Assembly (NCBI RefSeq): GCF_001458695.1
Contig: NZ_LN885086.1
Location: 2,760,001 to 2,792,000 of the forward strand
From: Candidatus Nitrospira inopinata
GTDB lineage: Bacteria; Nitrospirota; Nitrospiria; Nitrospirales; Nitrospiraceae
Length of the DNA: 32,000 nucleotides
Direction: 5' to 3'
The notes beneath the pieces are model-generated. The model saw only the letters and a program-made list of their open reading frames with translations, did no database searches and was not told where the DNA came from. This document shows positions 9,138-30,480 of the stretch, piece after piece; within the stretch, counting starts at the first letter, position 1; each line of letters starts with the position of its first letter. Both the position numbers and the translations under genes were made by a program.

Positions 9138-9167
9138 GTTTCACGCAATTCAGTTTCATGCAATTCA
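9138..9167 (+). repeat. Tandem 15-bp direct repeat abutting tRNA-Ser
   Basis: GTTTCACGCAATTCA followed by GTTTCATGCAATTCA (1 mismatch), ending 4 nt before the tRNA 5' end. Confidence 0.7.
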
Positions 9168-9171
9168 GTAT

Positions 9172-9261
9172 GGAGGGGTGCCGGAGCGGCCGAACGGACC
9201 GGTCTTGAAAACCGGAGATGGGGCAACTCATCCGCGAGTTCAAATCTCGCCCCCTCCGCCA
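9172..9261 (+). tRNA. tRNA-Ser (anticodon UGA), CCA encoded
   Basis: Acceptor stem GGAGGGG/CCCCTCC. Anticodon stem CCGGT/ACCGG with loop CTTGAAA. Long variable arm. T-arm GCGAG-TTCAAAT-CTCGC. Discriminator G followed by CCA. Confidence 0.95.
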
Positions 9262-11650: not shown

Positions 11651-11744
11651 GGAGAGGTGGCCGAGTGGCCGAAGGCAACGGTTTGCTAAACCGTCGTAGG
11701 GGCGAAAACCTCTACCGAGGGTTCAAATCCCTCCCTCTCCGCCA
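11651..11744 (+). tRNA. tRNA-Ser (anticodon GCU), CCA encoded
   Basis: Acceptor stem GGAGAGG/CCTCTCC. Anticodon stem ACGGT/ACCGT with loop TTGCTAA. Long variable arm. T-arm GAGGG-TTCAAAT-CCCTC. Discriminator G followed by CCA. Confidence 0.95.
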
Positions 11745-12759: not shown

Positions 12760-14088
12760 GTGAGCGGGCCGTTCTCTTCTTTCCCTCGGCGGTCGCCGGG
12801 TCATTTCCCTCCACGCCGGCTGATTCTCGGACTGCTCTTTGCCGTCAGCGTCGTGACCTACGTGGATCGAGTCAATATTTCCGTCGCCGCGCGCCAAATG
12901 ATGCCGGCGCTCGGGTTGACCGATCAACAAATGGGGTTCGTCTTTTCCGCCTTCGTCATCGGGTATGCCCTGTTTCAAATTCCGGGCGGATGGTTGGCGG
13001 ATCGATGGGGAGCCCGCCTGGTGCTGACCATCGGGCTCCTCTGGTGGTCATGTTTCACCGCCTTCACCGCAATCGCCGCCGCCTCGTTTCTGGCCGGTGT
13101 CCTGGGAATCCTCGGTGCGCTGGCGCTGATACGGTTTCTGCTCGGAGTCGGCGAAGGGGTGGCGCTGCCCACGTTCAACCGCGCCGTGACGGATTGGCTC
13201 CCGGCTCACGAACGCGGCTTCGGCATCGGCATGACCATCGGGGGAATCGGCGTCGGCTCCGCCCTTACTCCCCCGCTGACGGCGTGGATCATGGTGAACT
13301 ACGGTTGGCAAACCGCCTTCTATCTTTCGGCCGCTCTTGGAATCGGGCTGGCCGGTCTGTGGTGGACCGTCGCTCGTGACCATCCAGACGGCCATCCGCA
13401 GGAGAAAGAAAGGTTCACACTTTCTTCCGACGATCATCCCAATCATTCCACAAGATCGCCTGCCATTCCATGGACCGCCTGGCGAAAGACTCCGTCGGTG
13501 CGGTGGCTTGTCCTAAGTTACACGTGTCTGGGATACGTGGCTTACATCTACATGTCGTGGTTTTATCTCTACCTCGTGAACGTTCGCGGGTTCAACCTCC
13601 TGCGGGGCGGTCTGTATGCCGCCGCTCCGTTCCTCGCCATCCTCGTATTCTGCCCGCTGGGAGGATGGATCACGGATCGGTTGGCCTTGAAACACGGCGT
13701 CACCAAAGGTCGCCGCATCGTCGGCCAGGCGGGAATGGGATTGGCCGCGCTTTTTATCGCCGGCGGCGCGATCATTGACTCGCCCCATTGGGCCATCGCC
13801 AATCTCTCGTTCGGCGCCGGGTGGCTCTATTTCTCGGTCGGAGCCTATTGGTCTTCCACCAGCGATCTCTCAAGAACCCACGCCGGAAGTTTGTCCGGGC
13901 TGATGAACATGGGGGCCAACGTCGGAGGAGCCGTCTCCCCCTCCCTCACACCCTGGATCGCCGAACAATGGGGATGGCCCCTCTCACTCTCCGTCGCGGC
14001 GCTGATTGCGCTTGCCGGGGGGCTCATGTGGCTGAAGATCGATCCGGAAAAAGGTCTGTATCCGTGTGAAAACACGGCGCGTGGCTAG
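12760..14088 (+). CDS. MFS transporter (anion:cation symporter-like)
   Basis: 442-aa polytopic ORF. GTG start lies 5 nt after GGAG. Contains YVDRVNISVAA and MFS motif A, GGWLADRWGARLV. Confidence 0.85.
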   Translation: MSGPFSSFPRRSPGHFPPRRLILGLLFAVSVVTYVDRVNISVAARQMMPALGLTDQQMGFVFSAFVIGYALFQIPGGWLADRWGARLVLTIGLLWWSCFTAFTAIAAASFLAGVLGILGALALIRFLLGVGEGVALPTFNRAVTDWLPAHERGFGIGMTIGGIGVGSALTPPLTAWIMVNYGWQTAFYLSAALGIGLAGLWWTVARDHPDGHPQEKERFTLSSDDHPNHSTRSPAIPWTAWRKTPSVRWLVLSYTCLGYVAYIYMSWFYLYLVNVRGFNLLRGGLYAAAPFLAILVFCPLGGWITDRLALKHGVTKGRRIVGQAGMGLAALFIAGGAIIDSPHWAIANLSFGAGWLYFSVGAYWSSTSDLSRTHAGSLSGLMNMGANVGGAVSPSLTPWIAEQWGWPLSLSVAALIALAGGLMWLKIDPEKGLYPCENTARG

Positions 14089-14165
14089 CCATCGCCGCAA
14101 GGTACCGGCCTTCAGATGCAGATGGGTTGCGGGGTTCACCGGACTTTTCCACGCTCGATCCGGCC

Positions 14166-14195
14166 TTGCCGCAAAAGCGCCGTCCTTGATAGAGT
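14166..14195 (+). promoter_or_regulatory. Candidate extended -10 promoter placed for a leaderless cyclophilin mRNA
   Basis: TTGCCG (14166-14171), an 18-nt spacer, then TGATAGAGT with the -10 hexamer at 14190-14195. Only 6 nt separate it from the ATG at 14202, and there is no SD. Confidence 0.35.
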
Positions 14196-14201
14196 GCCGC
14201 T

Positions 14202-14723
14202 ATGGCGATGCAGTTCCAAAAAAAAGATCCGCGCCTCACCATCGTCACAAAATTTGGAGAGATTGCCGTTCGCCTCTATCCCGACGACGCCCCGCGTCAC
14301 GTCGAAAACTTTCTCAATCTCGCCCGGCTGGGATTCTTCGACGGCACCACGTTCCACCGCGTCGTACCGGGCTTTTTGCTCCAAGGCGGCGATCCGCTCA
14401 GCAAACAGCCTGATCGATCCCTGCACGGCACCGGAGGGCCCGGCTATTTTCTTCCGCCCGAACCGAACGACCGCCCCCACAAGCGCGGCGCCGTCTCCAT
14501 GGCCAAAATGCCCCGCGAGAGCAACAGCACCCGCGACTTCAACGACAACGGCTCGCAATTCTTCATCTGCCTGGATGACAATAACGGCCTTGATCGGTGC
14601 TATACCGTCTTTGGGGAAGTCTTCCGGGGCCTCGACGTCATCGATCAAATCGCCGCCGTCCCGCGTGACGAACGGGACAACCCGCTGGAGCCGATCAGGA
14701 TCACGGTCAAGGTGAAGGAGTAA
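14202..14723 (+). CDS. Cyclophilin-type peptidyl-prolyl isomerase
   Basis: Contains FHRVVPGFLLQGGDP and NGSQFFICL; 173 aa. Confidence 0.9.
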   Translation: MAMQFQKKDPRLTIVTKFGEIAVRLYPDDAPRHVENFLNLARLGFFDGTTFHRVVPGFLLQGGDPLSKQPDRSLHGTGGPGYFLPPEPNDRPHKRGAVSMAKMPRESNSTRDFNDNGSQFFICLDDNNGLDRCYTVFGEVFRGLDVIDQIAAVPRDERDNPLEPIRITVKVKE

Positions 14724-14862
14724 TCGGCGGCAACCGCCCTTCAGCCGCACCCACCGCTTTTCTTTCCAACCAGGAAAGACATCTCCCGACCGGCAGAACG
14801 TCGTTTTCCCTTGGCGTGGACGCTCACGATGCGCAAGGCACGGCCGGCTGGTCCTCGACCGG

Positions 14863-16104
14863 TTAGAAGAACGCCATGCTGACGTAGGTGACGGTGGAAT
14901 TGAACTGATCGGTGATACCGCGGTCGTAACGAAGCACTTCGCCCTTTTCAGCCTGAATCAGCCGCAAGAGCGAATAGATCGGCGCGAAACCGGTAATGCG
15001 GCGCCGATCCTCTTCCTTGAGGAGAAAGTCGGCAAACTCGTCGGCCTTGAGCTCTTCGACAAACTTGAGCATTTCAAGGTCCCGCTGCATGGACCGGTGG
15101 AACGAAAAATCCGTCGGCGGCTCCTTGTCGCCGTAGCGTAAGCCGAGATGCGCCAGCTCCCCCGCGGCGATCACGCAATAGGGTCGGCCGTCCTCGCGGA
15201 GAATCTCCCGCAGGCCGTCGAGAAACGCCCTCACTCCCTGTTTCAACGCGTGATCGGCCATCTCAATCGCCGAAAAGGAACAGAGAATCGGCACGATGGT
15301 GAAAGCCTTCTCACGACCCACGACCTCCTGCAAAAACGGCAATTGAAACTCGATCGAGGACTCGGCTTGGTGACACAGATCTTCGTGAAATGAATCGGGC
15401 AGGCGATCCCTGAGCCGCGCCATGATCGGCTGATCCGTACGGACCAGGCCAAGGGGTGTTTCAAAATCCTTGTCCGTCGCGGTAAACGGACGCACCGGCC
15501 CCGCTGAAGCGGTCCCCATGATGACATAGAGATCGGGCTGCACCGCCTCCCGCAACTCTTTGTACGCCCAGGCATAGACAGGTCCGGCTTGCTTCAGATC
15601 ATAGGCCGGCGTCACCAGCCCCTTGATCGGCTTGCCGGCATGAACGGACGGCTCGAACCCCGGCCCTTCCTGAGATGAGAAGAATCCCTCGACCTGCCTT
15701 CTCAGCTTGATACCTTCGGCTTCATAACCTCGTCCCGCAAACGTGGGCTTCCGACAAGGGGCTTGCCGGTAGGCATCCATGGCCCGTGCCAACGCCGCCT
15801 CGGTGCGAGCCCCTTCAAGGAACAGTTTTTCGTCCAGCTCGTTCACCAACCGTTCGATCTTGTCGGGCAGAAGAAACTCGCCGAACCGTTTGAGATACAG
15901 CGAGAGAATGTCCGTTAGAGAATGGCGGCCGTCGAAATGTTGGATGATGAAAAAATAATTCAGCGGCAGCACCAGCTTTTCTTGGCTCAACCCCGTCGGA
16001 TCCCACAACACAATGAACGAGTCTTCCCCCTGCTTGATGGGAGAGTACTGAAGATTCCGGAGCACCGGATACTGTTTGGGATCTCTCACGGTTTCGGTGG
16101 ACAT
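14863..16104 (-). CDS. MEMO1/AmmeMemoRadiSam-B-like protein with ~170-aa N-terminal extension
   Basis: The C-terminal ~250 aa resemble the Memo family: LVTPAYDLKQAGPVYAWAY, FTIVPILC, IAAGELAHLGLRYGD. The ORF is open to a TTG at 16143, but I prefer the ATG at 16104. Confidence 0.5.
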   Translation of the reverse strand: MSTETVRDPKQYPVLRNLQYSPIKQGEDSFIVLWDPTGLSQEKLVLPLNYFFIIQHFDGRHSLTDILSLYLKRFGEFLLPDKIERLVNELDEKLFLEGARTEAALARAMDAYRQAPCRKPTFAGRGYEAEGIKLRRQVEGFFSSQEGPGFEPSVHAGKPIKGLVTPAYDLKQAGPVYAWAYKELREAVQPDLYVIMGTASAGPVRPFTATDKDFETPLGLVRTDQPIMARLRDRLPDSFHEDLCHQAESSIEFQLPFLQEVVGREKAFTIVPILCSFSAIEMADHALKQGVRAFLDGLREILREDGRPYCVIAAGELAHLGLRYGDKEPPTDFSFHRSMQRDLEMLKFVEELKADEFADFLLKEEDRRRITGFAPIYSLLRLIQAEKGEVLRYDRGITDQFNSTVTYVSMAFF

Positions 16105-16113
16105 GGCGGCGAC

Positions 16114-16143
16114 ATTGTAGAAGATGAAAGGAGGGAGCTGCAA
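16114..16143 (-). promoter_or_regulatory. Candidate promoter directly upstream of the Memo-like ATG
   Basis: The minus strand reads TTGCAG (16143-16138), an 18-nt spacer, then TACAAT (16119-16114), with 9 nt to the ATG at 16104. No SD. Confidence 0.3.
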
Positions 16144-16227
16144 CGAGAGCGTCGATCCTTCGGCTTATGGTCAAACCTGAGGACGGCAAGAGACAAACAG
16201 AGGAATCTCAGGCTTCAACTCCTCGTA

Positions 16228-16980
16228 TCATCCCTCCGGGGGAGGCTCCGACTTGAGGCGGCGGCTCAGCAACAGGAGCGCGCCCACCGTGAGCAGCAGC
16301 ATCCACAGAGTCGGCCGTCCATACGACGCATCGGCATAACCGATCAGATCGCTCAGCCGGCCGATCAACAGCGACATGCGGGCCATCACCGTGTAGCCGA
16401 ACGCGGCGCCGAAGGCGATCATGAGGAAGAAAATCCCGGTTCGAGCCACCGCCTTGCCGGGCCCCGTGTGTTCGACCGAGAAAAAGAAGTAAAACAGGAC
16501 GGAAGTGACCCCGATCAGAATAATGATGGTGTTGATCCCACTCGCGGGGTTCAGCAGATTCCAGGTGAATACCACCCCTTCCGCCGGCACCAACGCGACC
16601 AAGGGACGGACCGTGTCTTCGACTTGTTTTAAGATGAACGAGGAGATGGTCCGTGGAATCGCCAATCCCGCCCCCACTCCCACGATAAAGGCAAAGGCGT
16701 AGCGGGACAGCCACGACACCTTCGGCACATAGCGCGCCAGCATCAACATGCCGATGAAGACGGGGATCAGCAACGTCCATTCATGGTTCTCGACGATCGG
16801 TTTCCAAATCAGATGCACGAGCACCATATCGTAGGTCTTGACGATCGTGTACCCGACCGACACGCCGACGTACAGATGCTCGGCCAGTTTAAACAAGGGA
16901 TTGTCCCGGTACAGAAACGAAAAGATGAACAGAGTCAACCCTGTCGCCACCCAGGCGCCGATGATGGATTCAACCGACAT
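16228..16980 (-). CDS. Polytopic membrane protein, unknown function (operon gene 7)
   Basis: About 250 aa with at least 6 hydrophobic spans. ATG at 16980 lies 7 nt after GAGG. Confidence 0.6.
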   Translation of the reverse strand: MSVESIIGAWVATGLTLFIFSFLYRDNPLFKLAEHLYVGVSVGYTIVKTYDMVLVHLIWKPIVENHEWTLLIPVFIGMLMLARYVPKVSWLSRYAFAFIVGVGAGLAIPRTISSFILKQVEDTVRPLVALVPAEGVVFTWNLLNPASGINTIIILIGVTSVLFYFFFSVEHTGPGKAVARTGIFFLMIAFGAAFGYTVMARMSLLIGRLSDLIGYADASYGRPTLWMLLLTVGALLLLSRRLKSEPPPEG

Positions 16981-17057
16981 CACGAGCCTCGATTACAGCC
17001 TGACCGAACTGAACACGACCCTTATTGCGACACACCAATCCCACGACCGTCGCCGCG

Positions 17058-17888
17058 TCACGACGCTTGCTGTTTACGCCGCAGGGCAAAGTAGAACAGA
17101 TTGCACAACATCACCAACACGATGATCGCCATGTGAGTGGCCGATTGGGCATCCATGCCGGCAACGGCCTGTCCCTTGCGGCCGATCAAACTCTCGTACT
17201 CCGCCGCCCCGCGCAATCCGCCGATCAGGCCGTTGATCTGCCCGCTTCGCAACAGCGGATAGAGTCCCGGCGCCATCACACCAGTACAGCCGCCCCCCAT
17301 TTCGAACTTGTATTTGTCCTTGCCGAACACGTACCAGGCTTCGACCCCCGGGTTGCCTGCTCCCAGACTCACGGCATAGTCCACATCCCGCAGACTGTTC
17401 ACCCCATCGAGCACCGGCAACCCTTTCGTCGGCCTCCCATGGTAGTCGGTCGGAAAGGTGGTGTAGAGGTTTTGCCCCATATTGATGATCACGGCCGTGC
17501 CTCCCGGACTCCAGCCGAGAAACACATAGTCCTTTGTGTCTTCTTTCCCCATCTCGCGGGCGACCTGTGAGATGATCTGATCGGCCAAGCCAGTCCCACT
17601 CACCCACAAGGTCATCGCCACGACACGCAGGTTCTTCCGAAACGCATGGTGGAGCAACGCCACGGCTTGCGGATACAGCTCCGGCTTGGAAGAGGGGTCA
17701 AAATCCAACGACAGGAGAAACACGGACCCTTCCGGCATCGATTCGATATAGTCATAGACGGCCCGGACTTCCGGCGAAATTTTGATCGGCAGCCCGACCG
17801 GATAGAGCAACGGCAGGAGCGTGCAGAGGCCGATGATCAAAAAGATGATCCGCCGGTCGATCTTGAGCATCCGTTCGGCAAGACTCAT
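17058..17888 (-). CDS. Bitopic membrane protein with large extracytoplasmic domain, unknown function (operon gene 6)
   Basis: 276 aa. N-terminal TM (IIFLIIGLCTLLPLLY) and C-terminal TM (HMAIIVLVMLCNLFYFAL). GGAGA lies 8 nt before the ATG. Confidence 0.6.
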   Translation of the reverse strand: MSLAERMLKIDRRIIFLIIGLCTLLPLLYPVGLPIKISPEVRAVYDYIESMPEGSVFLLSLDFDPSSKPELYPQAVALLHHAFRKNLRVVAMTLWVSGTGLADQIISQVAREMGKEDTKDYVFLGWSPGGTAVIINMGQNLYTTFPTDYHGRPTKGLPVLDGVNSLRDVDYAVSLGAGNPGVEAWYVFGKDKYKFEMGGGCTGVMAPGLYPLLRSGQINGLIGGLRGAAEYESLIGRKGQAVAGMDAQSATHMAIIVLVMLCNLFYFALRRKQQAS

Positions 17889-17965
17889 CGGCCGGTCTCC
17901 ATGAGACCTGGAGTTGATCGCGTCTGATCAGCAAATACCAAGCGACCGTTCACCTTTCGTCCTTT

Positions 17966-18616
17966 TTACTCCTTGCCTCCGCCCAGATACGACCGTTCCA
18001 CGCCGAAGATGATTTTCAACGACAGGGCCACGGCCCCCAAACTCACCCCGATCAAAATAGCCCGCCGCACCGAGGCGTTGAGGACGTTCAAAATCCATTG
18101 AGAGACATCCCCGCTTGCGGGAAGGACATACTCGCCCAACGGCACCCGTCCCATCATCACGATCACCGCCGCAACGAGCAGCACGGCGGCCTCGCGGCTC
18201 CTGGCGCGGAACGACCGATAGGCCGCGGACGCGATAAAGAACGCCAAAATAGCGAACATGGTCCCTTGCAGCGGCACCATCATGTAGTTGTACACCCACC
18301 CGAATGCCGTCAGGACCCCGTCGAGACTTTCCTTGCCATCTGCCCAAAGCCCGGCCACGATCGTGCCCACCATGCCGGCGTACAACACGAGACTGTAGCC
18401 CCAGCCCGCTTCCCGCCGGCGTATTTTGACGGCATGTTGATGGAAGAGACTGCTCACCCCCAACACCAGCGCAAAGCCGCCGATGATCTGAAGCCACTTG
18501 GTCACCGAGGTGAGCAGTTCTTCCGAGGCTGGATGGGGCACATAGTATTGGCCCGCCATCGTGAACCCGGCGATCAACGTGATCACAAGCGGCAACTGTC
18601 GGCGCAGTAAAATCAT
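17966..18616 (-). CDS. Polytopic membrane protein, unknown function (operon gene 5)
   Basis: 216 aa with 5-6 hydrophobic spans. A 4-nt overlap with the upstream gene suggests translational coupling. Confidence 0.6.
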   Translation of the reverse strand: MILLRRQLPLVITLIAGFTMAGQYYVPHPASEELLTSVTKWLQIIGGFALVLGVSSLFHQHAVKIRRREAGWGYSLVLYAGMVGTIVAGLWADGKESLDGVLTAFGWVYNYMMVPLQGTMFAILAFFIASAAYRSFRARSREAAVLLVAAVIVMMGRVPLGEYVLPASGDVSQWILNVLNASVRRAILIGVSLGAVALSLKIIFGVERSYLGGGKE

Positions 18617-19887
18617 TTCACATCCCTAAAGACGTCCAACAACCAGCGGGGCCACTCGGCCTCCGCCGCGACACCAATCGTCGCCAGCACGGTGCCAATG
18701 ATCAGAACGCCAAGGATCAACGCCTTGCCGACATCCTGGCCGCGCAAGGTGCCGACCTGCACTGGTTCCCGCGAGAGATACGCACTCGCGGCGTAAAGTT
18801 CTTCGCCGATCAGCGTATAGTCACAGGTCGTAACGAAAAACGGGAGCTGGTGATCAGAGTCGGTTCCTGCAATCTGGATCGCGCCGGTACTCGCGCCGGT
18901 TTCGGTCAGCAGCAACGACTCGGCAAAGTACGAGCCCATGAAAAAATTCGCCGCCGGCCTCTTGCGCAACATGATGCCATCCACCGCCGCCGTGTAGCTG
19001 AATTGATCCGAGGTGATGAAAAAATTCGAGTCTTCCTTGTAGAGATCAGGTTTCCCAGCCTCCAGATAGGCCTGCTTCGTAATCTCCTGGCAGACGGCCA
19101 TCGTGATCGGCTCGCGATGGGGCACCATCAATTCCGTCTCGTACGCGGCGGCCCGTTTGGCCACCCGCCCCAGAATCACCGCCGCCGCGATCGTCGAGGG
19201 ATCGCTCATGTCATGGGCGCCGGTCAAATACAGAACCGGCTTGCCCAACTCCGTCGCCCGGCCGATCGCTTCATCGACGGCGTCCAAGCCGGGAATGCGC
19301 CGCAGGAACATCTCCCGCTTCTTGGCCAAGCCGATGGAGACAAACACAATCCCGCCGAACAGGACAGCGAGGAACAGGTTGTTGATCTGATTCCAGTTGA
19401 TCCAATTGGGCTCCGGTACGGCGGAGACGATGGGACTGACCACCCGTTGTTCGCCGGACACCACCGCCAAGGCCACGGCGTACGGAATCCCGTCCTTGAG
19501 TCCGACGGTCTTGCCGTTTTTCATGACATACAGGTGCTGATCATCATTGGCCGGCTTGGTCCACCAGGGCTGCTTGGTCTCTCGCACATAGCGGGTGTTC
19601 GCGGGAAACTCGGCAACGACCGCGAGGCTGGAGGGGTCCACGTTATCCGCTGCCTCTCCCAGCAATACTTGGTACCGAACCTCGCTCGAATCATAAGACG
19701 CGGGCGGCCAGACAACCGTGAGACTGCCTCCTCCATCGCTCGGCGTGTCAAAGACACGCACCATGTCCGGCGGCGTCAACTCCTTGGGATCTGCCGCCCA
19801 TAGCAATCCAGCCGGTCCGATCGCTCCGATCGCCCAGCAGGCCGCGATCCCGATCACCGCCGCCGTGATTCCAAACCGCCGCCTCAC
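18613..19887 (-). CDS. Membrane protein with signal peptide, Fn3-like ectodomain and large cytoplasmic domain (operon gene 4)
   Basis: 424 aa. Signal peptide MRRRFGITAAVIGIAACWAIGAIG. Beta-rich segment SLTVVWPPASYDSSEVRYQVLLGE, a TM at ~170 and a C-terminal TM. I faintly recall this as DUF6754-like, not verified. Confidence 0.55.
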   Translation of the reverse strand: MRRRFGITAAVIGIAACWAIGAIGPAGLLWAADPKELTPPDMVRVFDTPSDGGGSLTVVWPPASYDSSEVRYQVLLGEAADNVDPSSLAVVAEFPANTRYVRETKQPWWTKPANDDQHLYVMKNGKTVGLKDGIPYAVALAVVSGEQRVVSPIVSAVPEPNWINWNQINNLFLAVLFGGIVFVSIGLAKKREMFLRRIPGLDAVDEAIGRATELGKPVLYLTGAHDMSDPSTIAAAVILGRVAKRAAAYETELMVPHREPITMAVCQEITKQAYLEAGKPDLYKEDSNFFITSDQFSYTAAVDGIMLRKRPAANFFMGSYFAESLLLTETGASTGAIQIAGTDSDHQLPFFVTTCDYTLIGEELYAASAYLSREPVQVGTLRGQDVGKALILGVLIIGTVLATIGVAAEAEWPRWLLDVFRDVK

Positions 19888-19891
19888 GCTG

Positions 19892-21022
19892 CTAGGCCCC
19901 CTCGATCACTTCGATGTTGGCCCTGGGAACGACCACGGTCGATCCATCGTCGAACCGCACTTCGAGCACACGGACTTCGCTTTCGGTCGGAATCTTCCGC
20001 AATTCGGACGGGAGCGCCGACACCCGGCCGATTTTTCCGAACAACGGATCGCGAATGATCCGAACCAGGTCTCCCGGTTGAATCCCCTCCCGCGTCACCT
20101 GCACCGAGCGGCGCCCTGCCTGCTGACCTTCCTTGAGTGGAATGATGATCTCCGGCCGGATCACTCCCGCGCGAATCTGAGTGGCGCCGGAAATCGAGGC
20201 CATTGCGCCTGCATGGGACGACAGCACCGCAAAGGTCTTGGCAGCCATGGGAATCGCGCCGAACCCTTCCGTCAGAATCAACGTGAACCCCACCTGCTCC
20301 GACCCCGTGATCGCCACCCCCAGGTCATAGCCCAAGAGTGCGCGCAAATCTTGATCGTGAATGCCACCAACCACCAGCCCGGCGACGCCGACCTCCTTGG
20401 CCTTGGCCATGGTTTCAGCAGACAAGAACGAGCCACCCACTACGACCTTGCCTTTCATCTCGACCATCAGTCGATCCGGCGTCAGGGGGCAGTCTGGAGC
20501 CTCGACGGCCATCACGATTTGCCCGTAAGCCTCTCCTCCGATCCCAAAGATCCCCTGAACGAGGCTACAGGCACATTCAATGGTCACTCCCTGTTGGGAA
20601 CGCACCTCCACCACCAGGCCATCCACATAGGCCAACAGATCCAGCACGCGCGGCGGCTCACGCAGGAGGACCTGCCCCGTGACGGTGGAAATTGATTCAA
20701 CCGTGCCGGTAACCGGCGAGCGGATTTCCGTCTTGAGCCACTTGAAAAACGGTTTATTCTCCGCCAGCACCTCATCCTTGTGAACCGTTTCACCTTCCCG
20801 CTTGACCAGATAGTCTTTGATCTCGTTGGGAGCCGCCCCCAACTGATTGGCCAAATTCAACGGGTACACCTTGCCCGGCAACTCGGCGCGGGCGACCGAT
20901 TGTGTCGCCAGAACGAGATCGCCTTCTTTCACCAACACCGTTCCTTGAAGCGGCAACTGCCGCACCCGCCGCACGACCGTTTGGTCGGTGACCGTCAAGC
21001 CCGGTGTGTAGGAATGAGCCAT
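19892..21022 (-). CDS. Soluble unknown with barrel-sandwich-hybrid-like N-terminus and KOW/SH3-like C-terminus (operon gene 3)
   Basis: 376 aa. Lipoyl/hybrid-like strands (VKEGDLVLATQSVA, IRSPVTGTV). C-terminal GDLVRIIRDPLFGKIGRV...VLEVRFDDGSTVVV. Confidence 0.55.
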   Translation of the reverse strand: MAHSYTPGLTVTDQTVVRRVRQLPLQGTVLVKEGDLVLATQSVARAELPGKVYPLNLANQLGAAPNEIKDYLVKREGETVHKDEVLAENKPFFKWLKTEIRSPVTGTVESISTVTGQVLLREPPRVLDLLAYVDGLVVEVRSQQGVTIECACSLVQGIFGIGGEAYGQIVMAVEAPDCPLTPDRLMVEMKGKVVVGGSFLSAETMAKAKEVGVAGLVVGGIHDQDLRALLGYDLGVAITGSEQVGFTLILTEGFGAIPMAAKTFAVLSSHAGAMASISGATQIRAGVIRPEIIIPLKEGQQAGRRSVQVTREGIQPGDLVRIIRDPLFGKIGRVSALPSELRKIPTESEVRVLEVRFDDGSTVVVPRANIEVIEGA

Positions 21023-21035
21023 CGCGAGTTGTCGG

Positions 21036-22901
21036 TTATCGGTTGTCGATTCTCAGTGAAGAAGCCGCGTCTTCAAAAGAGGGGTACAGCCCCACGGCCT
21101 GGTACCAGGTGGTCAACAAGGAAATACGAGCCTGCTGATCGGCCGGCAATTGCAACGGTCGCCCTCTTCCATCGAGCAACAGCCCCACGACGCCGCCGTG
21201 AACCGTCTTCGTGACGGGCGTTCCGGAACCGGCGCCGAGATTCACTCCCTTGACCGGTCGCACAATCACGGTCGCCTGCTCTCCCACCCCAAGCGGATAG
21301 AGCCGCAAATCGCCGAACTTGAGGTGGTCGGTGACGACTCTGCCGTCGGGAAAGGTGATCTCATAGTCGGCGCACCGATCCCCCACTTTTCCTTGCCCGA
21401 TCGGCGCCACGCAGGTTCCCAGATAGACCATACAGTCGCGAACGAACACGTCCGTCGCGGCTTTTTCATCAATCGTCGAGAGGACACCCAGGTGCGGCAT
21501 CATGAAGATACTGTCCACCGACAACCTCGTAACCCCCAACGGCTCGTAGGCATCGACCATCATCATCATGGCCTGAACCCGGCGTGGCGCATGGGACAGA
21601 ATCCCGCCGCTGCCCACGATGAGATCCAGCTTCAACATGTCGATCAAGGTCTTGCCGGAAGTCTGTTGTTCAAAGACATCCGAAATCGTCCGTTCCTGTT
21701 GAACACCTTTTAAGGCGGTCGCGAGGGACTTGTGATGGATCAACGCGAGCCGCAACGCTTCGCGGGCGATCGCCTGCTCGATCTGCAACTCATCCAACGT
21801 TTGCGGGATCGTCGTCGGGCGGATCATCTTGTTTTTGATCCGATTGCGCAACGTCTGCTCGTCGATCGTAAACGGCACCCACCGCATGATGTTGGCCAGG
21901 CCCGCCTCGGCCAGCACGTTGGACACACTGTACGACATCCCCAAATTGGCGCTCACGGTCCGGTTGAACGTGCCGTCGAACACTGAAAAGACGTCCGTCG
22001 TGGCCCCGCCGATATCGACACCGATCAAGTTGATGTGCTCCCGCTTGGCGATCGTTTCCATGATCAGCCCGACCGCGGCCGGCGTCGGCATGATCGGCGC
22101 GCCGGTCATCTCCATGAGCTTTTTATAGCCCGGAGCCTGTTGCATCACATGTTCAAGGAACAGGTCATGGATCTTGTGGCGCGCCGGCCCCAGATTTTCC
22201 CGCTCCAAGACGGGACGGATGTTCTCGGTCATCACCAGCGCCGTCTTCTCACCGAGGATCGTTTTCACCTGCCCCTGCGCGGCTTTGTTACCGGCATAGA
22301 TCAGCGGCAATTTGTAGGTCGCGCCGAACCGCGGTTTCGGCTCCGCCGCCGCGATATATTCAGCCATCTCCACCACGTGGGTCACCGCGCCGCCATCCGT
22401 TCCTCCCGACATCAAAATCATGTCGGGCCTCATGGTTCTGATCCGTTCGATCTTTTCGTGCGGCAGTCGCCCGTCGTTGGAGGCCAACACATCGATCACG
22501 ATCGCCCCCGCTCCCAAGGCGGCCCGCTGGGCGCTCTCGCCGGTCATGTTCTGCACCACGCCGGTCACCATCATCTGCAAGCCGCCGCCCGCGCTGCTCG
22601 TCGAGATATAGAGATCCACGCCGGTCTTGTCGTCCTTGCAAGGAGTCAGGATCCGGTCACCGTCCAGAATCTTGCGGCCGGAGAGCTCTTCAATCTCGGC
22701 GATCGCGTTCAGCACGCCTCTCGTCACGTCCTCAAACGGCGCCTCGACCGTCGTCGGCGCTTCTCCGCGATAGGTTTGCCGATATTCGTCGCCGATCTTT
22801 TCGATCAAAATCGCCTTGGTCGTCGTGCTGCCACAGTCGGTCGCCACGACCACCCGGAGCGGGCGAGGAATTGGTGGATCGTTCGAGACAGGACCCGTCA
22901 T
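21036..22901 (-). CDS. GlmL/MutL-type (glutamate mutase L / EutA-DdrA-like) ASKHA-fold ATPase, long form
   Basis: 621 aa. Phosphate-1 motif VVATDCGSTTTKAIL and a second nucleotide motif GVDIGGATTDVFSV. Also SSAGGGL and MSGGTDGG blocks as in GlmL. Confidence 0.65.
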   Translation of the reverse strand: MTGPVSNDPPIPRPLRVVVATDCGSTTTKAILIEKIGDEYRQTYRGEAPTTVEAPFEDVTRGVLNAIAEIEELSGRKILDGDRILTPCKDDKTGVDLYISTSSAGGGLQMMVTGVVQNMTGESAQRAALGAGAIVIDVLASNDGRLPHEKIERIRTMRPDMILMSGGTDGGAVTHVVEMAEYIAAAEPKPRFGATYKLPLIYAGNKAAQGQVKTILGEKTALVMTENIRPVLERENLGPARHKIHDLFLEHVMQQAPGYKKLMEMTGAPIMPTPAAVGLIMETIAKREHINLIGVDIGGATTDVFSVFDGTFNRTVSANLGMSYSVSNVLAEAGLANIMRWVPFTIDEQTLRNRIKNKMIRPTTIPQTLDELQIEQAIAREALRLALIHHKSLATALKGVQQERTISDVFEQQTSGKTLIDMLKLDLIVGSGGILSHAPRRVQAMMMMVDAYEPLGVTRLSVDSIFMMPHLGVLSTIDEKAATDVFVRDCMVYLGTCVAPIGQGKVGDRCADYEITFPDGRVVTDHLKFGDLRLYPLGVGEQATVIVRPVKGVNLGAGSGTPVTKTVHGGVVGLLLDGRGRPLQLPADQQARISLLTTWYQAVGLYPSFEDAASSLRIDNR

Positions 22902-23317
22902 TGAGCCGACGTTCCTTTAGGAGCGTGAGCCGGAGCATGGGCTGAAAGAGAAGGAGACGACGTGGAAGTCATGGACTTGGCCTCGATCAACGCGACCAGA
23001 CGATCGACCGTGTCGCGCCGTTCGAGCAACCGGGCCGCCTGGTCCAATGTCTTGGCATCCAGAACCACTTCGAGAAGAGGAGCCAAGACCTGCAGCGCCT
23101 GGCCGCCTACAAAGTTCATCGGCGCGAGCGATTCCAGGAACACCGTCGCCGGGGCCGCCATCCCCCTTTGCACAACAGCCTCGGCGATGCGATCCAGCAA
23201 GGCCTGATCTTCCGAAGACAAGGCCATACTCTCGGGTTGAGTCGTAAAGGCATGGCGGAACCCCGCTTGAACCCTGCCCCATGTCTGAGCCCACGATGGT
23301 TTGAGAATGGAAGACAT
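22898..23317 (-). CDS. Small helical protein, unknown function (operon gene 1)
   Basis: The ORF is open to a TTG at 23383. The near-consensus promoter overlaps that region, so the ATG at 23317 (MSSILKPSW) is the first start downstream of the predicted TSS. It overlaps the next gene by 4 nt. Confidence 0.5.
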   Translation of the reverse strand: MSSILKPSWAQTWGRVQAGFRHAFTTQPESMALSSEDQALLDRIAEAVVQRGMAAPATVFLESLAPMNFVGGQALQVLAPLLEVVLDAKTLDQAARLLERRDTVDRLVALIEAKSMTSTSSPSLSAHAPAHAPKGTSAQ

Positions 23318-23354
23318 GCGTCTCTGGAAAGGCCTGTCAACTTGTCGCTGCGGC

Positions 23355-23383
23355 ATTATAGAAACGGGTCTGGAGAGAGTCAA
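23355..23383 (-). promoter_or_regulatory. Near-consensus sigma70 promoter of the GlmL-like operon
   Basis: The minus strand reads TTGACT (23383-23378), a 17-nt spacer, then TATAAT (23360-23355). Confidence 0.55.
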
Positions 23384-23618
23384 TTCAATGGCTCTTCAAT
23401 GACTCTCCCTGGCACCGCCGTAGCTCGATTGGCCGGTCATCCTGCTCGGTTGATGATCGGCCCAAGCCCGACGGGGCGACACAAGACCAACGCCGTTGAC
23501 AACGCACCGCCTTTGCTCAACAATCCCGCCGTCGTCGAGGATGGTCGAGAGCAAGACGGCAACCCCGACCCGCACAGACTCTCTCTCTTGTTGCGTACTG
23601 ATTGTGGAGCGTCGCGAC

Positions 23619-25281
<1,663 letters not shown>

Positions 25282-25307
<26 letters not shown>

Positions 25308-25563
25308 CCGTCACGCGCTCGAACGCATGTTTGAGCGACGGATCTCGGAGCCCGAGGTGGAGGAAGCGGTGCGTAACGGTGAGGTCATCGAGGAATATTC
25401 TGAGGACACGCCATACCCCAGTCAGCTTTTACTAGGGTGGTTCGGGGGCCGACCGCTGCACGTCGTGGCGGCGTACGATCCCGGAAGCGGAACGTGTGTG
25501 GTGATAACGGCGTATGTTCCGGATGCAACGCAATGGAACGAGGACTTCAAGACAAGGAGATGA
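25282..25563 (+). CDS. DUF4258-family putative toxin
   Basis: 93 aa: [23 protein letters not shown]...[11 protein letters not shown]...VITAYVPD..W. Its ATG sits in the GGGTATGG box that normally provides the hsdS start. Confidence 0.7.
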
Positions 25564-25565
25564 GC

Positions 25566-25790
25566 ATGAAATGCGTGATGTGCAAGCACGGGGAGACAGA
25601 GCCTGGCAAGGTGCCGGTGACTCTACACCGAGGCGACAGCGTGATCATCATCAAGGAGGTTCCGGCCGAAGTATGCCGGCAATGCGGCGAGTACTATGTG
25701 GACGACGCCACAACTGCTCGACTCCTCGCCATGGCTGAGGAAGCTGTAAAGCATCGCGCTGAGGTGGAAATCCTTCGCTACGCAGCGTGA
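25566..25790 (+). CDS. YgiT/MqsA-type zinc-ribbon putative antitoxin
   Basis: MKCVMCKHGE...VPAEVCRQCGEYYV (CxxC...CxxC). AAGGAG lies 6 nt upstream. It overlaps or abuts the toxin stop. Confidence 0.7.
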   Translation: MKCVMCKHGETEPGKVPVTLHRGDSVIIIKEVPAEVCRQCGEYYVDDATTARLLAMAEEAVKHRAEVEILRYAA

Positions 25791-25805
25791 CAGTGGACCG
25801 TGCGG

Positions 25806-25902
25806 CGAAAAAATGAAATGCTGGCCACGACGTTACGCGAGCAACAGGCCGAGGCGGCGAAGCTTGATGCGGCCATCGCCAAGAACCTGGAGGAGCTTGG
25901 GT

Positions 25903-25913
<11 letters not shown>
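25806..25913 (+). pseudogene. Relic second copy of the hsdM 3' end
   Basis: The frame reads ...[32 protein letters not shown]. The true HsdM tail reads [31 protein letters not shown]. Its TGA (25911-25913) overlaps the hsdS ATG (25903). Confidence 0.8.
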
Positions 25914-27146
<1,233 letters not shown>

Positions 27147-27150
<4 letters not shown>

Positions 27151-27773
27151 TTCGCCCAACATCCATGAACTACGACCCCGAAAAGCATCATCGCCGCAGC
27201 ATCCGCCTGAAGGAATACGATTATTCCCAGCCGGGGGCATATTTCATCACCATCTGCACACAGGATCGGGCGTGCCTGTTCGGCGAGGTGGTGGATGGGG
27301 AAATGCGGGTAAATGATGCAGGGCGCATGATCCAATCGGTGTGGGACGAAATGTCGGCGTTCTATTCCGGCATTGATGCCGACGAATTCGTTGTCATGCC
27401 CAATCACATCCACGGGATCATTGTCCTTGTAGGGGCGACCCCCTGTGGTCGCCCCGAATCGGGGCAGGCACAGGGGCAGGCACGGGGGCCTGCCCCTACC
27501 CTCTCGGTACCGGCTGCGGTTCACCGGTTCAAAACCCTCACCACGAAACGATATACCGATGGGATAAAACAATCCGGATGGCCGCCGTTTCGCGGTCGGT
27601 TGTGGCAACGCAACTATTACGAACACATCATCCGCAATGACGAATCCCTGAACCGCATACGCGAATACATCACAAACAACCCGTCGCAATGGTCGTTGGA
27701 CCGCGAGAACCCGAATTTCGTAGGGGCACGGCATGCCGTGCCCCTACCAAAAGATGAACCATGGCGCGCCTGA
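27147..27773 (+). CDS. REP-associated tyrosine transposase (RAYT, IS200/Y1 HUH family)
   Basis: Contains [25 protein letters not shown], the HUH motif PNHIHGII, and the Tyr region [27 protein letters not shown]. An alternative start lies at 27165 (MNYDPEKHH). The 3' end reads through a REP hairpin. Confidence 0.85.
27429..27499 (+). repeat. Inverted pair of GTAG-headed REP-like hairpins inside the RAYT ORF
   Basis: First hairpin: GTAG then GGGGCGACC-CCCTGT-GGTCGCCCC (27429-27455). Second, opposite orientation: AGGGGCAGGC-ACGGGG-GCCTGCCCCT then AC (27472-27499). Together they encode [24 protein letters not shown]. Confidence 0.75.
27719..27746. repeat. Perfect 28-bp GTAG-headed palindrome (REP-like) at the RAYT 3' end
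   Basis: GTAGGGGCACGGCATGCCGTGCCCCTAC. Confidence 0.8.
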
Positions 27774-27885
27774 CCGAATCCGACGTTGAATCCGCCGCCC
27801 TCGCCTGGCTGGAGGCCATAGGGTGGTCCGCCGCCCACGGGCCGGACATCGCGCCGGATATGCCCGCGGCCGAGCGGGCCGATCA
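27761..27885 (+). pseudogene. Relic hsdR 5' end, copy 1
   Basis: [42 protein letters not shown] matches the HsdR N-terminus at 30551. Similarity is lost after about 27885. Confidence 0.75.
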
Positions 27886-27991
27886 CGAAGACAGGCGGGA
27901 CGCACCGAGCGGTCGACGTGAACTTGCGAGCAGCCGCGCTGCAAACTCGCGTTCGGCCAAGACCACGAGGAGCATTCAGCCGGCGTGTGGC

Positions 27992-28083
27992 TTGCAGCCA
28001 GCCGATGGACAACCTTGCAATCCGCCGATCCATAAGGTTGCACTTAGCCGACAGCAAACCTTACAATCAGCCGATGCCAGACC
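27992..28083 (+). repeat. Four 23-bp-phased iteron-like repeats (TTGCA-N4-GCCGA)
   Basis: Units start at 27992, 28015, 28038 and 28061: TTGCAGCCAGCCGAT, TTGCAATCCGCCGAT, TTGCACTTAGCCGAC, TTACAATCAGCCGAT. Units 3 and 4 also supply TTGCAC, an 18-nt spacer and TACAAT, 6 nt before the ATG at 28074. Confidence 0.7.
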
Positions 28084-29321
28084 CGGGTTTCTATCCGCGC
28101 TTCGTCGCGGATCGGCTGGCTGAGGCGCTTGAAGACGCTCCGGCCGTGCTGATCCACAGCCCCCGCCAGAGCGGCAAGACGACGCTCGCCCAGCGAACCG
28201 GCCTGCGGGCTGGCTACACGTACTTGAGCTTCGATGACGACGCCATCCGCAGCGCCGCGACGACGGATCCGATCGGCTTCGTCGCGAATTTGCCGGCGCG
28301 GGTGATCCTGGACGAGGTGCAGCATGTGCCGCACCTGTTCACCGCGCTCAAGACGACGATCGATCGCGACCGGCGGCCGGGCCGTTTCCTGTTGACCGGC
28401 TCGACCAACGTGCTTCTCCTGCCAAAGCTCGGCGATTCGCTGGCCGGTCGCATGGCGATCGTGCACCTGCACCCGCTGGCGCAGTGCGAACTCGCCGGTC
28501 AACGCCCATCCTTTCTCGACCGGCTTTTCGGCCGGGGCTTCACGATGCGCCCGTTCGAGCGTCTCGGTGCAGCACTTGTTGAACGCATCGTTGCCGGCGG
28601 CTACCCGGCTGCGCTCAAGCTTCCGTCGGGCCGGCGGCGGGGGCGATGGTACGAGGCGTACGTCGAAACGATCGTGCAGCGTGACGTGCGCGAGCTCGCA
28701 CGAATCGCCTCGCTCGACGTGGTTCCTCGGCTGCTTGCCGCAGCCGCCGCGCAGACAGCTCGGCTGCTGAACGTCTCCGACCTGGCTGCGCCGTACCAGC
28801 TCAGTCGGCCGACGATCCGCGATTACGTGACACTGCTCGAGCGCATCTTCCTGCTGGAGGAATTGCCTCCCTGGTACGTCAACCGCTTGAGGCGGCTGGT
28901 CAAGACACCCAAGCTGCACGTAGGTGATACCGGTATCGCGTGCGCGCTCCTCGGCGCAGACGCCAGAAGCTTGACGGCCGATCGCGCCCTGTTGGGCCAG
29001 ATGCTTGAGACTTTCGTGTTCCAGGAACTCAAGCGGCAGGCGAGCTGGTACGAGCATCCCCTCGCGTTTCATCACTTTCGTGACCGCGACGGGTACGAGG
29101 TGGACATCGTTGTCGAGCGCGGGGCGCGCGCCGTCGCGGGGATCGAGGTCAAGGCTGCGGCGACGGTGACAGCGGCCGACTTTCGCGGACTGCGCAAGCT
29201 CCGGGACGCTGCCGGCCAGCGCTTCGCGTGCGGCGTCGTGCTCTACGACGGCACCGTGAGCGTATCGTTCGGGAACTCGTTGTTCGCCGTTCCGATCCGC
29301 GCGTTGTGGGAGGCGTCATGA
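28074..29321 (+). CDS. AAA+ ATPase (AAA_14) with DUF4143 wHTH and a PD-(D/E)xK-like C-terminus
   Basis: Walker [10 protein letters not shown] and Walker [10 protein letters not shown]. wHTH-like [26 protein letters not shown]-terminal [12 protein letters not shown]...GIEVKA. The ORF is open from 27918, but homolog-like sequence begins at M 28074. Confidence 0.8.
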
Positions 29322-29578
29322 CCAGGCCCTTCATGGAGTCGGACGTCGAGCAGGCCGCCCTGGCCTGGCTGAAAACCAGCGGGTGGCCCGTCGCGCACGG
29401 GCCGGACATATCGCCTTCCGGCAATACCCTCACCCTAGCCCTCTCCCAGCGGGAGAGGGAACATTACGGCGAGGTGGTGCTGGCGCAGCGGCTGCGCGAC
29501 GCGCTGCCGCCCACGCTTGTCTCTGGTAAACTGCGAGCGACGGAGGCCATAAACGTTCCGGAGGCACAGCGGTTGTGA
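29318..29578 (+). pseudogene. Chimeric relic: hsdR 5' end (copy 2) fused to an hsdS-type C-terminal tail
   Basis: [35 protein letters not shown]...[16 protein letters not shown] is HsdR-like. It then reads [14 protein letters not shown], compared with the HsdS tail LPKLISGELRVKDA. ATGA overlap with the ATPase stop and GTGA overlap with the next gene. Confidence 0.7.
29396..29505 (+). repeat. Direct repeat A (~110 nt), partner at 30626-30735
   Basis: Hand alignment at an offset of 1230 nt gives 5 mismatches in about 110 nt. Includes the CCCTCTCCC-AGC-GGGAGAGGG hairpin at 29439-29459. Confidence 0.85.
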
Positions 29579-30480
29579 AGCCTGTTTCCGCAATCGTCAT
29601 TTACGAAGGCGAAAATGCCCGCGTCGAGGTGCGCATCGAGCATGACAACGTCTGGCTGAACCTGCAACAGGTGGCGGACCTGTTCGGTCGCGACAAGTCG
29701 GTGATCTCGCGGCATCTGAAAAACATCTTCGACACCAAGGAGTTGGAGCGCGACTCAGTTGTTGCAAAAAATGCAACAACTGCCGCCGATGGCAAGACCT
29801 ACCTCGTCGATTACTACAACCTCGACGCCATCATTTCGGTAGGGTACCGGGTCAACTCCACCCGTGCCACCCGCTTTCGCCAATGGGCCACGCGCGTGCT
29901 GCGTGAGCATCTGACAAAGGGATACACGCTCAACCGTCAGCGCTTCGAGCAAAACGCTCGGGAACTGGAAGCCACACTGGCGCTGGTGCGCAAGGCCGCA
30001 GCCGGCGAGGTGTTGACGACCGATCAAGGGCGCGGGCTGGTGGATATTATCGCCCGCTACACACAGACCTTCCTCCTGCTGCAGCACTATGACGAGGGGC
30101 TGCTCGCCGAGCCGAAGGGCGTGCCCGGTGGCGTGTTGCCAACGGCACAGGTGGCGCGCGCCGCGATCGCGCGGCTCAAGGCCGAACTCATCCAGCGCGG
30201 CGAGGCGAGCGAACTGTTCGGCCGCGAGCGGGACAACGGGCTTACCGCGCTACTCGGGAATCTGGACCAGACGGTGCTCGGCGCACCCGCGTACCCGACC
30301 ATCGAATCGAAAGCGGCGCACCTTCTGTATTTCGTGATCAAGGACCACCCGTTTGTCGATGGCAACAAACGCATCGGCTCGTTCTTGTTCGTCGAATTTC
30401 TGGACCGCAACGGCCGCCTCTTCCGCGACGGCGAACCGGTGATCACGACATGGGGCTGGCGGCGCTCGCGCTGCTGGTAG
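29575..30480 (+). CDS. RhuM-family N-terminal domain fused to a Fic/Doc domain; 3' frameshift
   Basis: The RhuM-like N-terminus is [27 protein letters not shown]...[25 protein letters not shown]. The Doc-type Fic motif is [11 protein letters not shown]. After about 30447 the adjacent frame reads [33 protein letters not shown] and ends at 30548. Confidence 0.8.

Follow-up and report, generated by a model that had tools for sequence, protein, structure and literature searches.

Seven genes in a 32,000-nucleotide stretch of Candidatus Nitrospira inopinata (contig NZ_LN885086.1, positions 2,760,001 to 2,792,000; the whole stretch is called the window, and all position numbers are its own) probably encode an undescribed cell-envelope machine. 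They are numbered g1 to g7 in gene order from their promoter on the minus strand, and we give about even odds (0.5) to the reading that their products form one ATP-driven inner-membrane complex of an undescribed kind. Its ATPase would be g2, of the MutL/GlmL type within the ASKHA superfamily; to our knowledge, this type is otherwise known only as a helper of B12 enzymes. That the set appears to match no known kind of system is read from absent matches and from genomic context.

Co-conservation of the seven genes

The seven minus-strand open reading frames (ORFs) lie at 16228–23317 in the order g1 to g7, with intergenic distances of −4, 13, 4, −4, 77 and 74 nt; a first-pass annotation of the same DNA had proposed a seven-gene operon with these spacings, and the ORF check recovers all of its coordinates exactly. 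Comparable loci were collected by scanning an alignment of DUF6754, the family of g4, over the GTDB species, each represented by a single genome. At least 591 species matched; the best 80 loci were taken, together with six more from contig look-ups, and the six-frame ORFs of the resulting 86 loci (numbered with the prefix L) were searched with the window proteins.

The loci fall in at least 11 named lineages (Nitrospirota, Methylomirabilota, Elusimicrobiota, Binatia, Brocadiia, Phycisphaerae, Latescibacterota, Gemmatimonadota, WOR-3, Sumerlaeota and Eisenbacteria). The complete set, g1 to g7, is collinear in nine of these; the loci of the other two, WOR-3 and Sumerlaeota, hold the genes for the membrane proteins g4–g7, with g2–g3 not nearby. 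Collinear g5-g6-g7 follow g4 in 72 of 74 testable loci (Nitrospirota, 34/35; other phyla, 38/39, the single miss being an ORF-calling artefact), and collinear g1-g2-g3 precede it in 56 of 67 (Nitrospirota, 28/29; other phyla, 28/38). A failure of the membrane genes to be co-conserved with the ATPase, named in the first-pass annotation as evidence that would speak against its proposal, thus did not occur. Median identities to the window proteins in other phyla are 38% for g1, 68% for g2, 53% for g3, 48% for g4, 49% for g5, 46% for g6 and 49% for g7, and purifying selection on the set is strong. A bin named 'uncultured Enterobacteriaceae' (L039) and proteins P0445 and P0492, assigned to 'Petrachloros mirabilis', carry a Nitrospirota-like cluster and are probably mislabelled.

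No characterised pathway containing the set was found with Pfam, NCBIfam, PADLOC, PDB searches by sequence and by fold, or the literature. None of the seven proteins matches PADLOC, and a reading as a defence system was dropped. Full-text literature searches on DUF6754, PF13941, TIGR01319 and GlmL with ASKHA, and on glutamate mutase with the phyla concerned, gave no description of the cluster.

Operon layout and promoter

The operon lies behind a sigma-70-type promoter on the minus strand (TTGACT, 23383–23378; 17-nt spacer; TATAAT, 23360–23355; 11 of 12 consensus matches), the top-scoring site in a 9.5-kb scan. Identical hexamers at identical spacing, about 37–40 nt before the ATG of g1, occur in 28 of 31 upstream regions (30 Nitrospirota loci and the window). 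Because hexamers, spacing and distance have been kept while the surrounding DNA has diverged, this conservation, far beyond chance, reads as a phylogenetic footprint, and the promoter, already pointed out in the first-pass annotation, is regarded as real.

The longest ORF of g1 (22898–23383) would begin at a TTG whose first base, 23383, is also the first base of the −35 hexamer. Since this TTG belongs to the −35 box, the start is placed at ATG 23317, which gives a small soluble protein of 139 amino acids (aa; 22898–23317, minus strand); the cross-phylum alignment, in which conservation begins at '...HAFA', agrees. The stop of g1 overlaps the start of g2 (ATGA), and the two genes overlap by 4–8 nt in the gene calls of the window and of L082–L086. 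Overlaps of g4/g5, g5/g6 and g6/g7 are frequent across the loci, those among g5, g6 and g7 often being of 1–4 nt in other lineages.

The ATPase and its soluble partners

The product of g2 (621 aa; 21036–22901, minus strand) matches the Pfam family MutL (PF13941) with 433.9 bits (E 9e-130; gathering threshold 27) over model positions 1–449 of 450 (aa 18–489). The phosphate-1, phosphate-2 and adenosine motifs of the ASKHA fold are present, and ATDCGSTTTKA, VDIGGATTD and GSGG.L.H.P are invariant in 27 cross-phylum sequences; the full-length match and the intact motifs bear out the earlier assignment of g2 as a MutL/GlmL-type ATPase. It falls below the cut-offs of the narrower models: 238.5 bits on NCBIfam GlmL (NF040745; equivalog cut-off 475), which leaves it outside GlmL; 215.7 bits on the Or-4 model (cut-off 600); 170.2 bits on TIGR01319 (cut-off 204). 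A weak match to Pfam Hydantoinase_A was also obtained, and no match to the MreB, FtsA or PilM families was found in Pfam or NCBIfam.

Past the end of the Pfam model, g2 has an extra C-terminal domain of about 130 aa that is conserved across phyla in the same 27 sequences. It covers aa 490–621 (window 21036–21434) and carries the motif GGVVGL.LDGRGRPL. An Fe-S site in this domain was considered and set aside, a metal site there being possible but poorly supported: Cys490 is invariant, but Cys497 is kept in 25/27 sequences and Cys510 in 26/27.

GlmL/MutL, EutA and DdrA-type ASKHA proteins are accessory or reactivating factors of B12-dependent enzymes. Among the annotated ORFs of the window there is no glmS, glmE or other B12 enzyme, as the first-pass annotation had said; the neighbours that were Pfam-annotated or scanned in other loci showed none either, and no glmS/glmE- or mutase-like family recurs among the neighbours of the loci. 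PDB searches with g2, as a single sequence and as a profile, gave no chain at E ≤ 1 except noise; with no PDB sequence relative detected and no client gene nearby, g2 is not placed among the DdrA/EutA reactivases. The best matches of g2 are Nitrospira proteins labelled 'glutamate mutase L'. This label, 'methylaspartate mutase' and 'ornithine aminomutase' are carried by its homologues in the databases and are contradicted by gene context; for a large clade, the name 'glutamate mutase L' is almost certainly wrong.

The conserved core of g1 reads ...HAFA...PA..FLES..P.NF.GSQ. No Pfam or NCBIfam family was found for g1, g5, g6 or g7, even when 24–33 diverse homologues of each were scanned.

For g3 (376 aa, soluble; 19892–21022, minus strand), the AlphaFold2 (AF2) model (predicted local distance difference test, pLDDT, 84; structure predictions were run on database homologues) has four domains: an N-terminal barrel-sandwich hybrid, a beta-barrel, an alpha/beta domain (about aa 190–295) and a C-terminal KOW/SH3-like domain. 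Weak Pfam matches to RnfC_N, Biotin_lipoyl and KOW agree with the model domains, so that model and matches both favour the barrel-sandwich-like N-terminus and KOW/SH3-like C-terminus predicted earlier. Foldseek gave domain-level matches alone, to the KOW domains of NusG/Spt5 (TM-score about 0.8 on isolated KOW domains) and to BCCP. Many residues are invariant, including TEGFG and SGATQIRAGV.RPE. Scores stay below threshold for the lipoyl/biotinyl carrier family PF00364 (19.1 bits; threshold 22.1) and for RnfC_N (22.8 bits; threshold 25.6); there is no Complex1_51K, SLBB or Fer4 match and there are no conserved cysteines, which places g3 outside the RnfC/NqrA type. Two further ideas on g3 were dropped: a GlmE-like mutase subunit, prompted by a single-sequence PDB match to glutamate mutase epsilon (E 0.65), found no backing in the profile search, where TIM-barrel and KOW matches at noise level were all that appeared; and internal homology with g4 had an hhalign probability below 1%. 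PDB searches gave no solved structure related by sequence to g2, g3, g4, g5, g6 or g7.

The membrane proteins

The g4 protein (424 aa; 18613–19887, minus strand) belongs to DUF6754 (PF20539; 386.7 bits, threshold 27; E 5e-116) and shares 100% identity with a database protein of Candidatus Nitrospira inopinata. Hydropathy and AF2 give a signal peptide, an ectodomain of about 135 aa, a transmembrane (TM) helix, a cytoplasmic domain and a C-terminal TM helix; of the earlier description, signal peptide, ectodomain, TM helix and cytoplasmic domain stand, and the extra C-terminal hydrophobic segment had been overlooked. In the AF2 model of aa 150–424 (pLDDT 94), a six-stranded Rossmann-like domain is held between TM helices, the C-terminal one being long. 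Foldseek against PDB gave no more than weak matches of a generic kind for DUF6754, to SIS domains of MurR/MurQ and to Moco-carrier/LOG-like proteins (best E 2e-3; TM-score 0.3–0.5). An exhaustive search with g4 gave 2,192 clusters at 50% identity, among which the TM-DUF6754-TM part is about 50–60% identical and the ectodomain ranges from very short to about 1,000 aa; a Pfam scan of long ectodomains gave no informative domains, and a search of plasmids for DUF6754 gave no match. Some ectodomains appear coiled-coil, with a weak Baculo_PEP_C match and an 'EnvC' label from JGI; the one protein concerned (P0512), named 'septal ring factor EnvC', probably owes the name to its coiled-coil ectodomain.

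By hydropathy, g5 (216 aa; 17966–18616, minus strand) and g7 (251 aa; 16228–16983, minus strand) are polytopic, as had been noted, with about 6 and about 6–7 TM helices. The conserved cytoplasmic loops of g5 are Arg-rich. Previously taken for bitopic, g6 (276 aa; 17058–17888, minus strand) has instead a TM helix at each end, with a periplasmic domain of about 220 aa between them. In this topology g1, g2, g3 and the DUF6754 domain are cytoplasmic, and the g4 and g6 domains are periplasmic.

None of g4–g7 matches an ABC, ECF (energy-coupling factor) or MacB family in Pfam or NCBIfam. The window proteins g5 and g7 match neither BPD_transp_1 nor any other Pfam family, which leaves them outside the ABC (ATP-binding cassette) permeases; among 33 homologues of g5 and 30 of g7, no family matched more than 4, all at E ≥ 1e-4. 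Genuine OppB and OppC proteins encoded in neighbouring positions were readily detected. The membrane proteins g4–g7 have no conserved cysteines, and the idea that g5 is homologous to g7, or g6 to g4, was rejected (hhalign probabilities below 1%).

Modularity of the cluster and an additional gene

The set appears to consist of a cytoplasmic module, g1-g2-g3, and a membrane module, g4–g7. Five loci (L038, L068, L075, L078 and L079) have the membrane genes but no g2 and g3 within 10 kb, and three (L047, L048 and L077; two Binatia and one Sumerlaeota) have g1-g4-g5-g6-g7 but no g2 and g3; from these occurrences, g1 is likely to be the link between the modules. One Brocadiia contig (L084) has g1-g2-g3 alone, followed by ligT, recA and alaS, and two (L060 and L079) have g4–g7 alone. 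Two tandem g4-g5-g6-g7 sets stand beside a single g1–g3 in L074 (9557–13249 and 13260–16806) and L065 (2421–6170 and 9653–10804); since their paralogues are just 38–50% identical, the duplication is old. In L054 and L058, g6 is present twice.

To the cytoplasmic module may be added g0, a small membrane protein of about 140–155 aa encoded directly upstream of g1 in 21 loci (Latescibacterota, Gemmatimonadota, Phycisphaerae, Sumerlaeota, Eisenbacteria and some unclassified bins). It has two hydrophobic helices and a soluble domain (e.g., L082, 7313–7741; L077, 3685–4152), matches no Pfam or NCBIfam family and is absent from the window.

Neighbouring transporter and lipoylation genes

Opp-type oligopeptide ABC importer genes, as complete or partial sets, lie in among those of the cluster in five or more permutations: g1-g2-[OppA,B,C]-g3...g7-[OppD,F]-Tricorn-like peptidase (L052, with Opp stretches at 4071–8360 and 13181–15230; L081); g2-g3-[OppABCDF]-g4...g7 (L067, Elusimicrobiota, 1912–8140); [OppA]-g0-g1...g7-[OppB,C] (L085); [OppA]-g0...g7-[TonB-type receptor] (L061 and relatives); and [LplA-like]-g0...g7-[OppD,F]-Tricorn-like-UbiA (L082 and L083). 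L047 and L048 also have interleaved Opp genes. Such genes are found in 9/11 loci of Latescibacterota, 2/2 of Gemmatimonadota, 3/4 of Binatia, 1/2 of Elusimicrobiota and 0/43 of Nitrospirota, window included. A gene for a secreted Tricorn/TolB-like peptidase or a TonB-type receptor often stands with them. In heterotrophic phyla, this neighbourhood of Opp, peptidase and receptor genes points to peptides or peptide-like compounds; the presence of the cluster in autotrophs that have no Opp surroundings argues for a more general envelope role.

Lipoylation enzymes, two different ones in unrelated phyla, form a second group of neighbours. In five Nitrospirota loci (L014, L027, L030, L033 and L086), the gene of lipoyl synthase, LipA, immediately precedes g1; that of an LplA-like ligase immediately precedes g0-g1 in five loci of Latescibacterota/Gemmatimonadota type (L052, L063 and L081–L083) and stands after the second g7 copy in L074 (16834–17694). 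The ligase is divergent (87 bits; cut-off 480). Even in loci whose lipA gene runs up to the −35 box, the promoter of the g1 operon is retained. A general role of g3 as a lipoylated or biotinylated carrier was rejected: because no hairpin lysine is invariant in 28 cross-phylum sequences, canonical lipoylation is not supported. In 8/28, including L030 and L014, in which lipA is adjacent, Q, R, S or G stands in place of K94; K90 and K97 vary too, and L042 (Binatia) has no hairpin lysine at all.

Proposed mechanism

We infer that g1, as a small adaptor, together with g2 and g3 would form a cytoplasmic motor module that binds and hydrolyses ATP, and that g4-g5-g6-g7 would assemble with it as the inner-membrane module. 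The conformational cycle of g2 would be passed through g1 and g3 to the membrane proteins. The only mechanistic precedents known to us for the ATPase family of g2 are the reactivases DdrA, EutA and presumably GlmL; in DdrA and EutA, ATP turnover pries open a Rossmann-like subunit of the client, as in the DdrAB structures. By analogy, force may be applied, possibly by way of g3, at the domain of g4 that is held between two TM helices; being Rossmann-like, as are the client subunits of DdrA and EutA, this domain is the most plausible point of entry. The machine might then either move a substrate across the membrane by way of g5 and g7 or set the periplasmic parts of g4 and g6 in motion. In several heterotrophic phyla, it may have an Opp-type oligopeptide importer as its partner.

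An ATP-driven, envelope-spanning machine had been suggested in the first-pass annotation, and topology and co-conservation both fit it. The duplicated and separable g4–g7 sets are counted in favour of a single ATP-driven complex, this modularity being typical of machines built from a motor and a membrane module. Counted on the same side are the overlapping genes, the strong sequence constraint with its invariant ASKHA motifs, the confidently modelled Rossmann-like fold of the DUF6754 domain, the lack of B12 enzymes in the window and in the neighbourhoods surveyed, and the interleaving with Opp genes. A fuller form of this reading can be put forward as a tentative sketch, the balance tilting somewhat against it as a whole: the cluster could represent a new class of inner-membrane machine with a GlmL-family ATPase of actin/Hsp70 fold in place of an ABC, AAA+ or rotary motor, in which the g1–g3 motor would dock one or more exchangeable g4–g7 modules, the variable ectodomain would set specificity, and cooperation with oligopeptide uptake and protein lipoylation may occur.

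Several observations weigh against a single machine. Of the 67 testable loci, 8 lack g2 and g3 in the roughly 10 kb around g4–g7, and the two modules are therefore separable; the Opp link is missing from all 43 Nitrospirota loci, that of the window included; the Foldseek matches of the DUF6754 models are weak (E 2e-3 at best, TM-score 0.3–0.5); the Rossmann-client analogy is drawn from DdrAB and EutA, and g2 has no detectable PDB sequence relative; and the adjacency of lipoylation enzymes is not accounted for by a single-machine model.

Alternative explanations

The best surviving alternative, in our judgement unlikely but worth keeping in view, is that two separate, metabolically linked units are encoded: a secondary or accessory transporter, g4–g7, and a soluble ATP-dependent enzyme, g1-g2-g3, acting on the transported compound, for example one derived from peptides or amino acids. 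Hydantoinase and oxoprolinase, which are ASKHA enzymes, and the amino-acid pathways associated with GlmL would be its models. The modules do occur apart (L084, L060, L079, L068 and L078), Opp genes can separate g2 from g3 (L052 and L081) or g3 from g4 (L067), Latescibacterota and Gemmatimonadota have Opp, Tricorn-like peptidase and TonB-type receptor genes next to the cluster, and g2 has its weak Hydantoinase_A match. However, Pfam, profile and Foldseek searches found nothing in g3 that would mark the cofactor or catalysis of a known enzyme; g1 accompanies the membrane module where g2 and g3 are missing; g5 and g7 match no transporter family; and for a catabolic enzyme, the 68% identity of g2 and its presence in autotrophs (Nitrospira, anammox bacteria and Methylomirabilis) would be unusual.

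A membrane-anchored, actin-like scaffold or morphogenetic complex, comparable to MreB-MreC-MreD, FtsA or PilM-PilN-PilO, in which the ASKHA protein polymerises or switches on the cytoplasmic face and organises periplasmic partners, is improbable. The ASKHA fold, the very high conservation, as in cytoskeletal proteins, the resemblance of the partners to MreC and MreD (polytopic proteins and a membrane protein whose periplasmic domain is large) and the seemingly coiled-coil ectodomains of some DUF6754 proteins would suit it; yet no MreB, FtsA or PilM match was obtained, and genes for division or the cell wall are not among the recurrent neighbours. In a survey of the actin superfamily, the glutamate-mutase family is grouped with the enzymes, separate from the polymer-forming families (PMC5597319).

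That g2 is an ordinary GlmL/EutA/DdrA-type reactivase of a B12 or radical enzyme encoded elsewhere, with the membrane genes unrelated, is very improbable: the full-length MutL match, the 238 bits on the GlmL model and the database label 'glutamate mutase L' speak for it, but g2 stays below the GlmL, Or-4 and TIGR01319 cut-offs and has a conserved C-terminal domain beyond the MutL model, no mutase is found in the annotated ORFs of the window or in annotated neighbourhoods and none recurs among the neighbours, and chance cannot explain why the same six partners are collinear with g2 in many phyla. A lipoate-dependent relay, in which the barrel-sandwich domain of g3 would carry a lipoyl or octanoyl arm received from the LipA or LplA-like enzyme and shuttle acyl groups or redox equivalents to the membrane module, deserves equally little credence, since the adjacent lipA and LplA-like genes and the weak Biotin_lipoyl and RnfC_N matches of g3 are set against the variable hairpin lysine, a g1 promoter conserved even where lipA abuts, and membrane proteins that lack conserved cysteines.

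Other features of the window

A Memo-like gene of the AmmeMemoRadiSam protein B family lies downstream of g7 (14863–16143, minus strand; Pfam Memo, E 9.5e-33; TIGR04336, 94.8 bits, cut-off 26). It had been taken for a possible member of the operon; it follows g7 in 31/32 Nitrospirota loci and 0/35 loci of other phyla and, being linked to g7 in Nitrospirota only, is left outside the conserved core. The gap of 84 nt given for it earlier is right for a TTG start at 16143; with the ATG at 16104 that had been quoted, the gap is 123 nt (16105–16227). Within this gap, TTGCAG-N18-TACAAT ends 9 nt before ATG 16104 and may be a separate promoter of a near-leaderless Memo transcript, at a site that the consensus scan did not flag. 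A complete AmmeMemoRadiSam trio in the window was rejected: the radical SAM gene at 6586–7635 is of the PA0069 family, and the adjoining ORF of 190 aa has no family.

The window also encodes MoaA, a MoaD-MoaE fusion and MoaC (molybdenum cofactor, Moco, genes), the PA0069-family radical SAM protein, and SerS followed by tRNA-Ser(TGA), with a second tRNA-Ser(GCT) 2.4 kb further (coordinates for the Moco, radical SAM and SerS/tRNA items: 911–3261, 6586–9261 and 11651–11744); FKBP, a major facilitator superfamily transporter and cyclophilin are encoded before the Memo-like gene and the operon. Immediately upstream of the operon promoter is a mobile/defence island (23496–30480) with type I restriction-modification genes for HsdM and HsdS, an overlapping pair of small ORFs (25282–25790), a weak REP-associated tyrosine-transposase-like ORF, a DUF4143/AAA_14 ATPase and a RhuM+Fic protein; its GC content is 0.60–0.66, that of the operon 0.57–0.61. 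The side taken by the island is occupied by lipA in L014, L027, L030, L033 and L086.

Significance

If one ATP-driven complex is indeed encoded, a motor of ASKHA fold would join the short list of ways in which bacteria power work at the inner membrane. A first functional context would be given to DUF6754 (about 2,200 clusters at 50% identity), to the unnamed families of g1, g5, g6 and g7, and to g3, which has sub-threshold domain matches only. The carriers belong to environmentally important groups that are hard to grow (Nitrospira, including comammox relatives; anammox Brocadiia; Methylomirabilis; Latescibacterota; Gemmatimonadota), and the identity of about 68% of the ATPase across phyla suggests a core physiological role. 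Opp interleaving and the adjacency of lipoylation enzymes offer concrete, testable entry points.

Comparison with known systems

With GlmL and Or-4 of ornithine degradation, g2 shares the end-to-end Pfam MutL match and the ASKHA motifs; it differs in scoring at about half the equivalog cut-offs, in its additional C-terminal domain of about 130 aa, and in its constant partners, which are two soluble and four membrane proteins and not glmS/glmE. With DdrAB and EutA it shares the superfamily, and g4 may offer, in its Rossmann-like cytoplasmic domain, an analogue of the client; in contrast to them, g2 has no detectable sequence similarity to any PDB chain, DdrA presumably among them, and no B12 client, and its presumed client would be embedded in the membrane.

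FtsEX-EnvC, ABC systems of the MacB/LolCDE type and ECF transporters likewise combine a cytoplasmic ATPase module with membrane proteins that have large periplasmic domains. One motor module beside duplicated membrane modules recalls the sharing of ECF modules, and the variable periplasmic domain is as in modular envelope systems; the fold of g2, however, is that of actin/Hsp70 and not the P-loop ABC fold. PilM-PilN-PilO, FtsA and MreB-MreC-MreD resemble the cluster in that an ASKHA protein is encoded with bitopic and polytopic membrane partners, but similarity at the family level is absent, and the MutL family is grouped with enzymes (PMC5597319). The Opp/Dpp importers are connected with the cluster by genes interleaved in Latescibacterota, Gemmatimonadota, Binatia and Elusimicrobiota, yet they form a separate, recognisable system (SBP_bac_5, BPD_transp_1, and ABC_tran with oligo_HPY).

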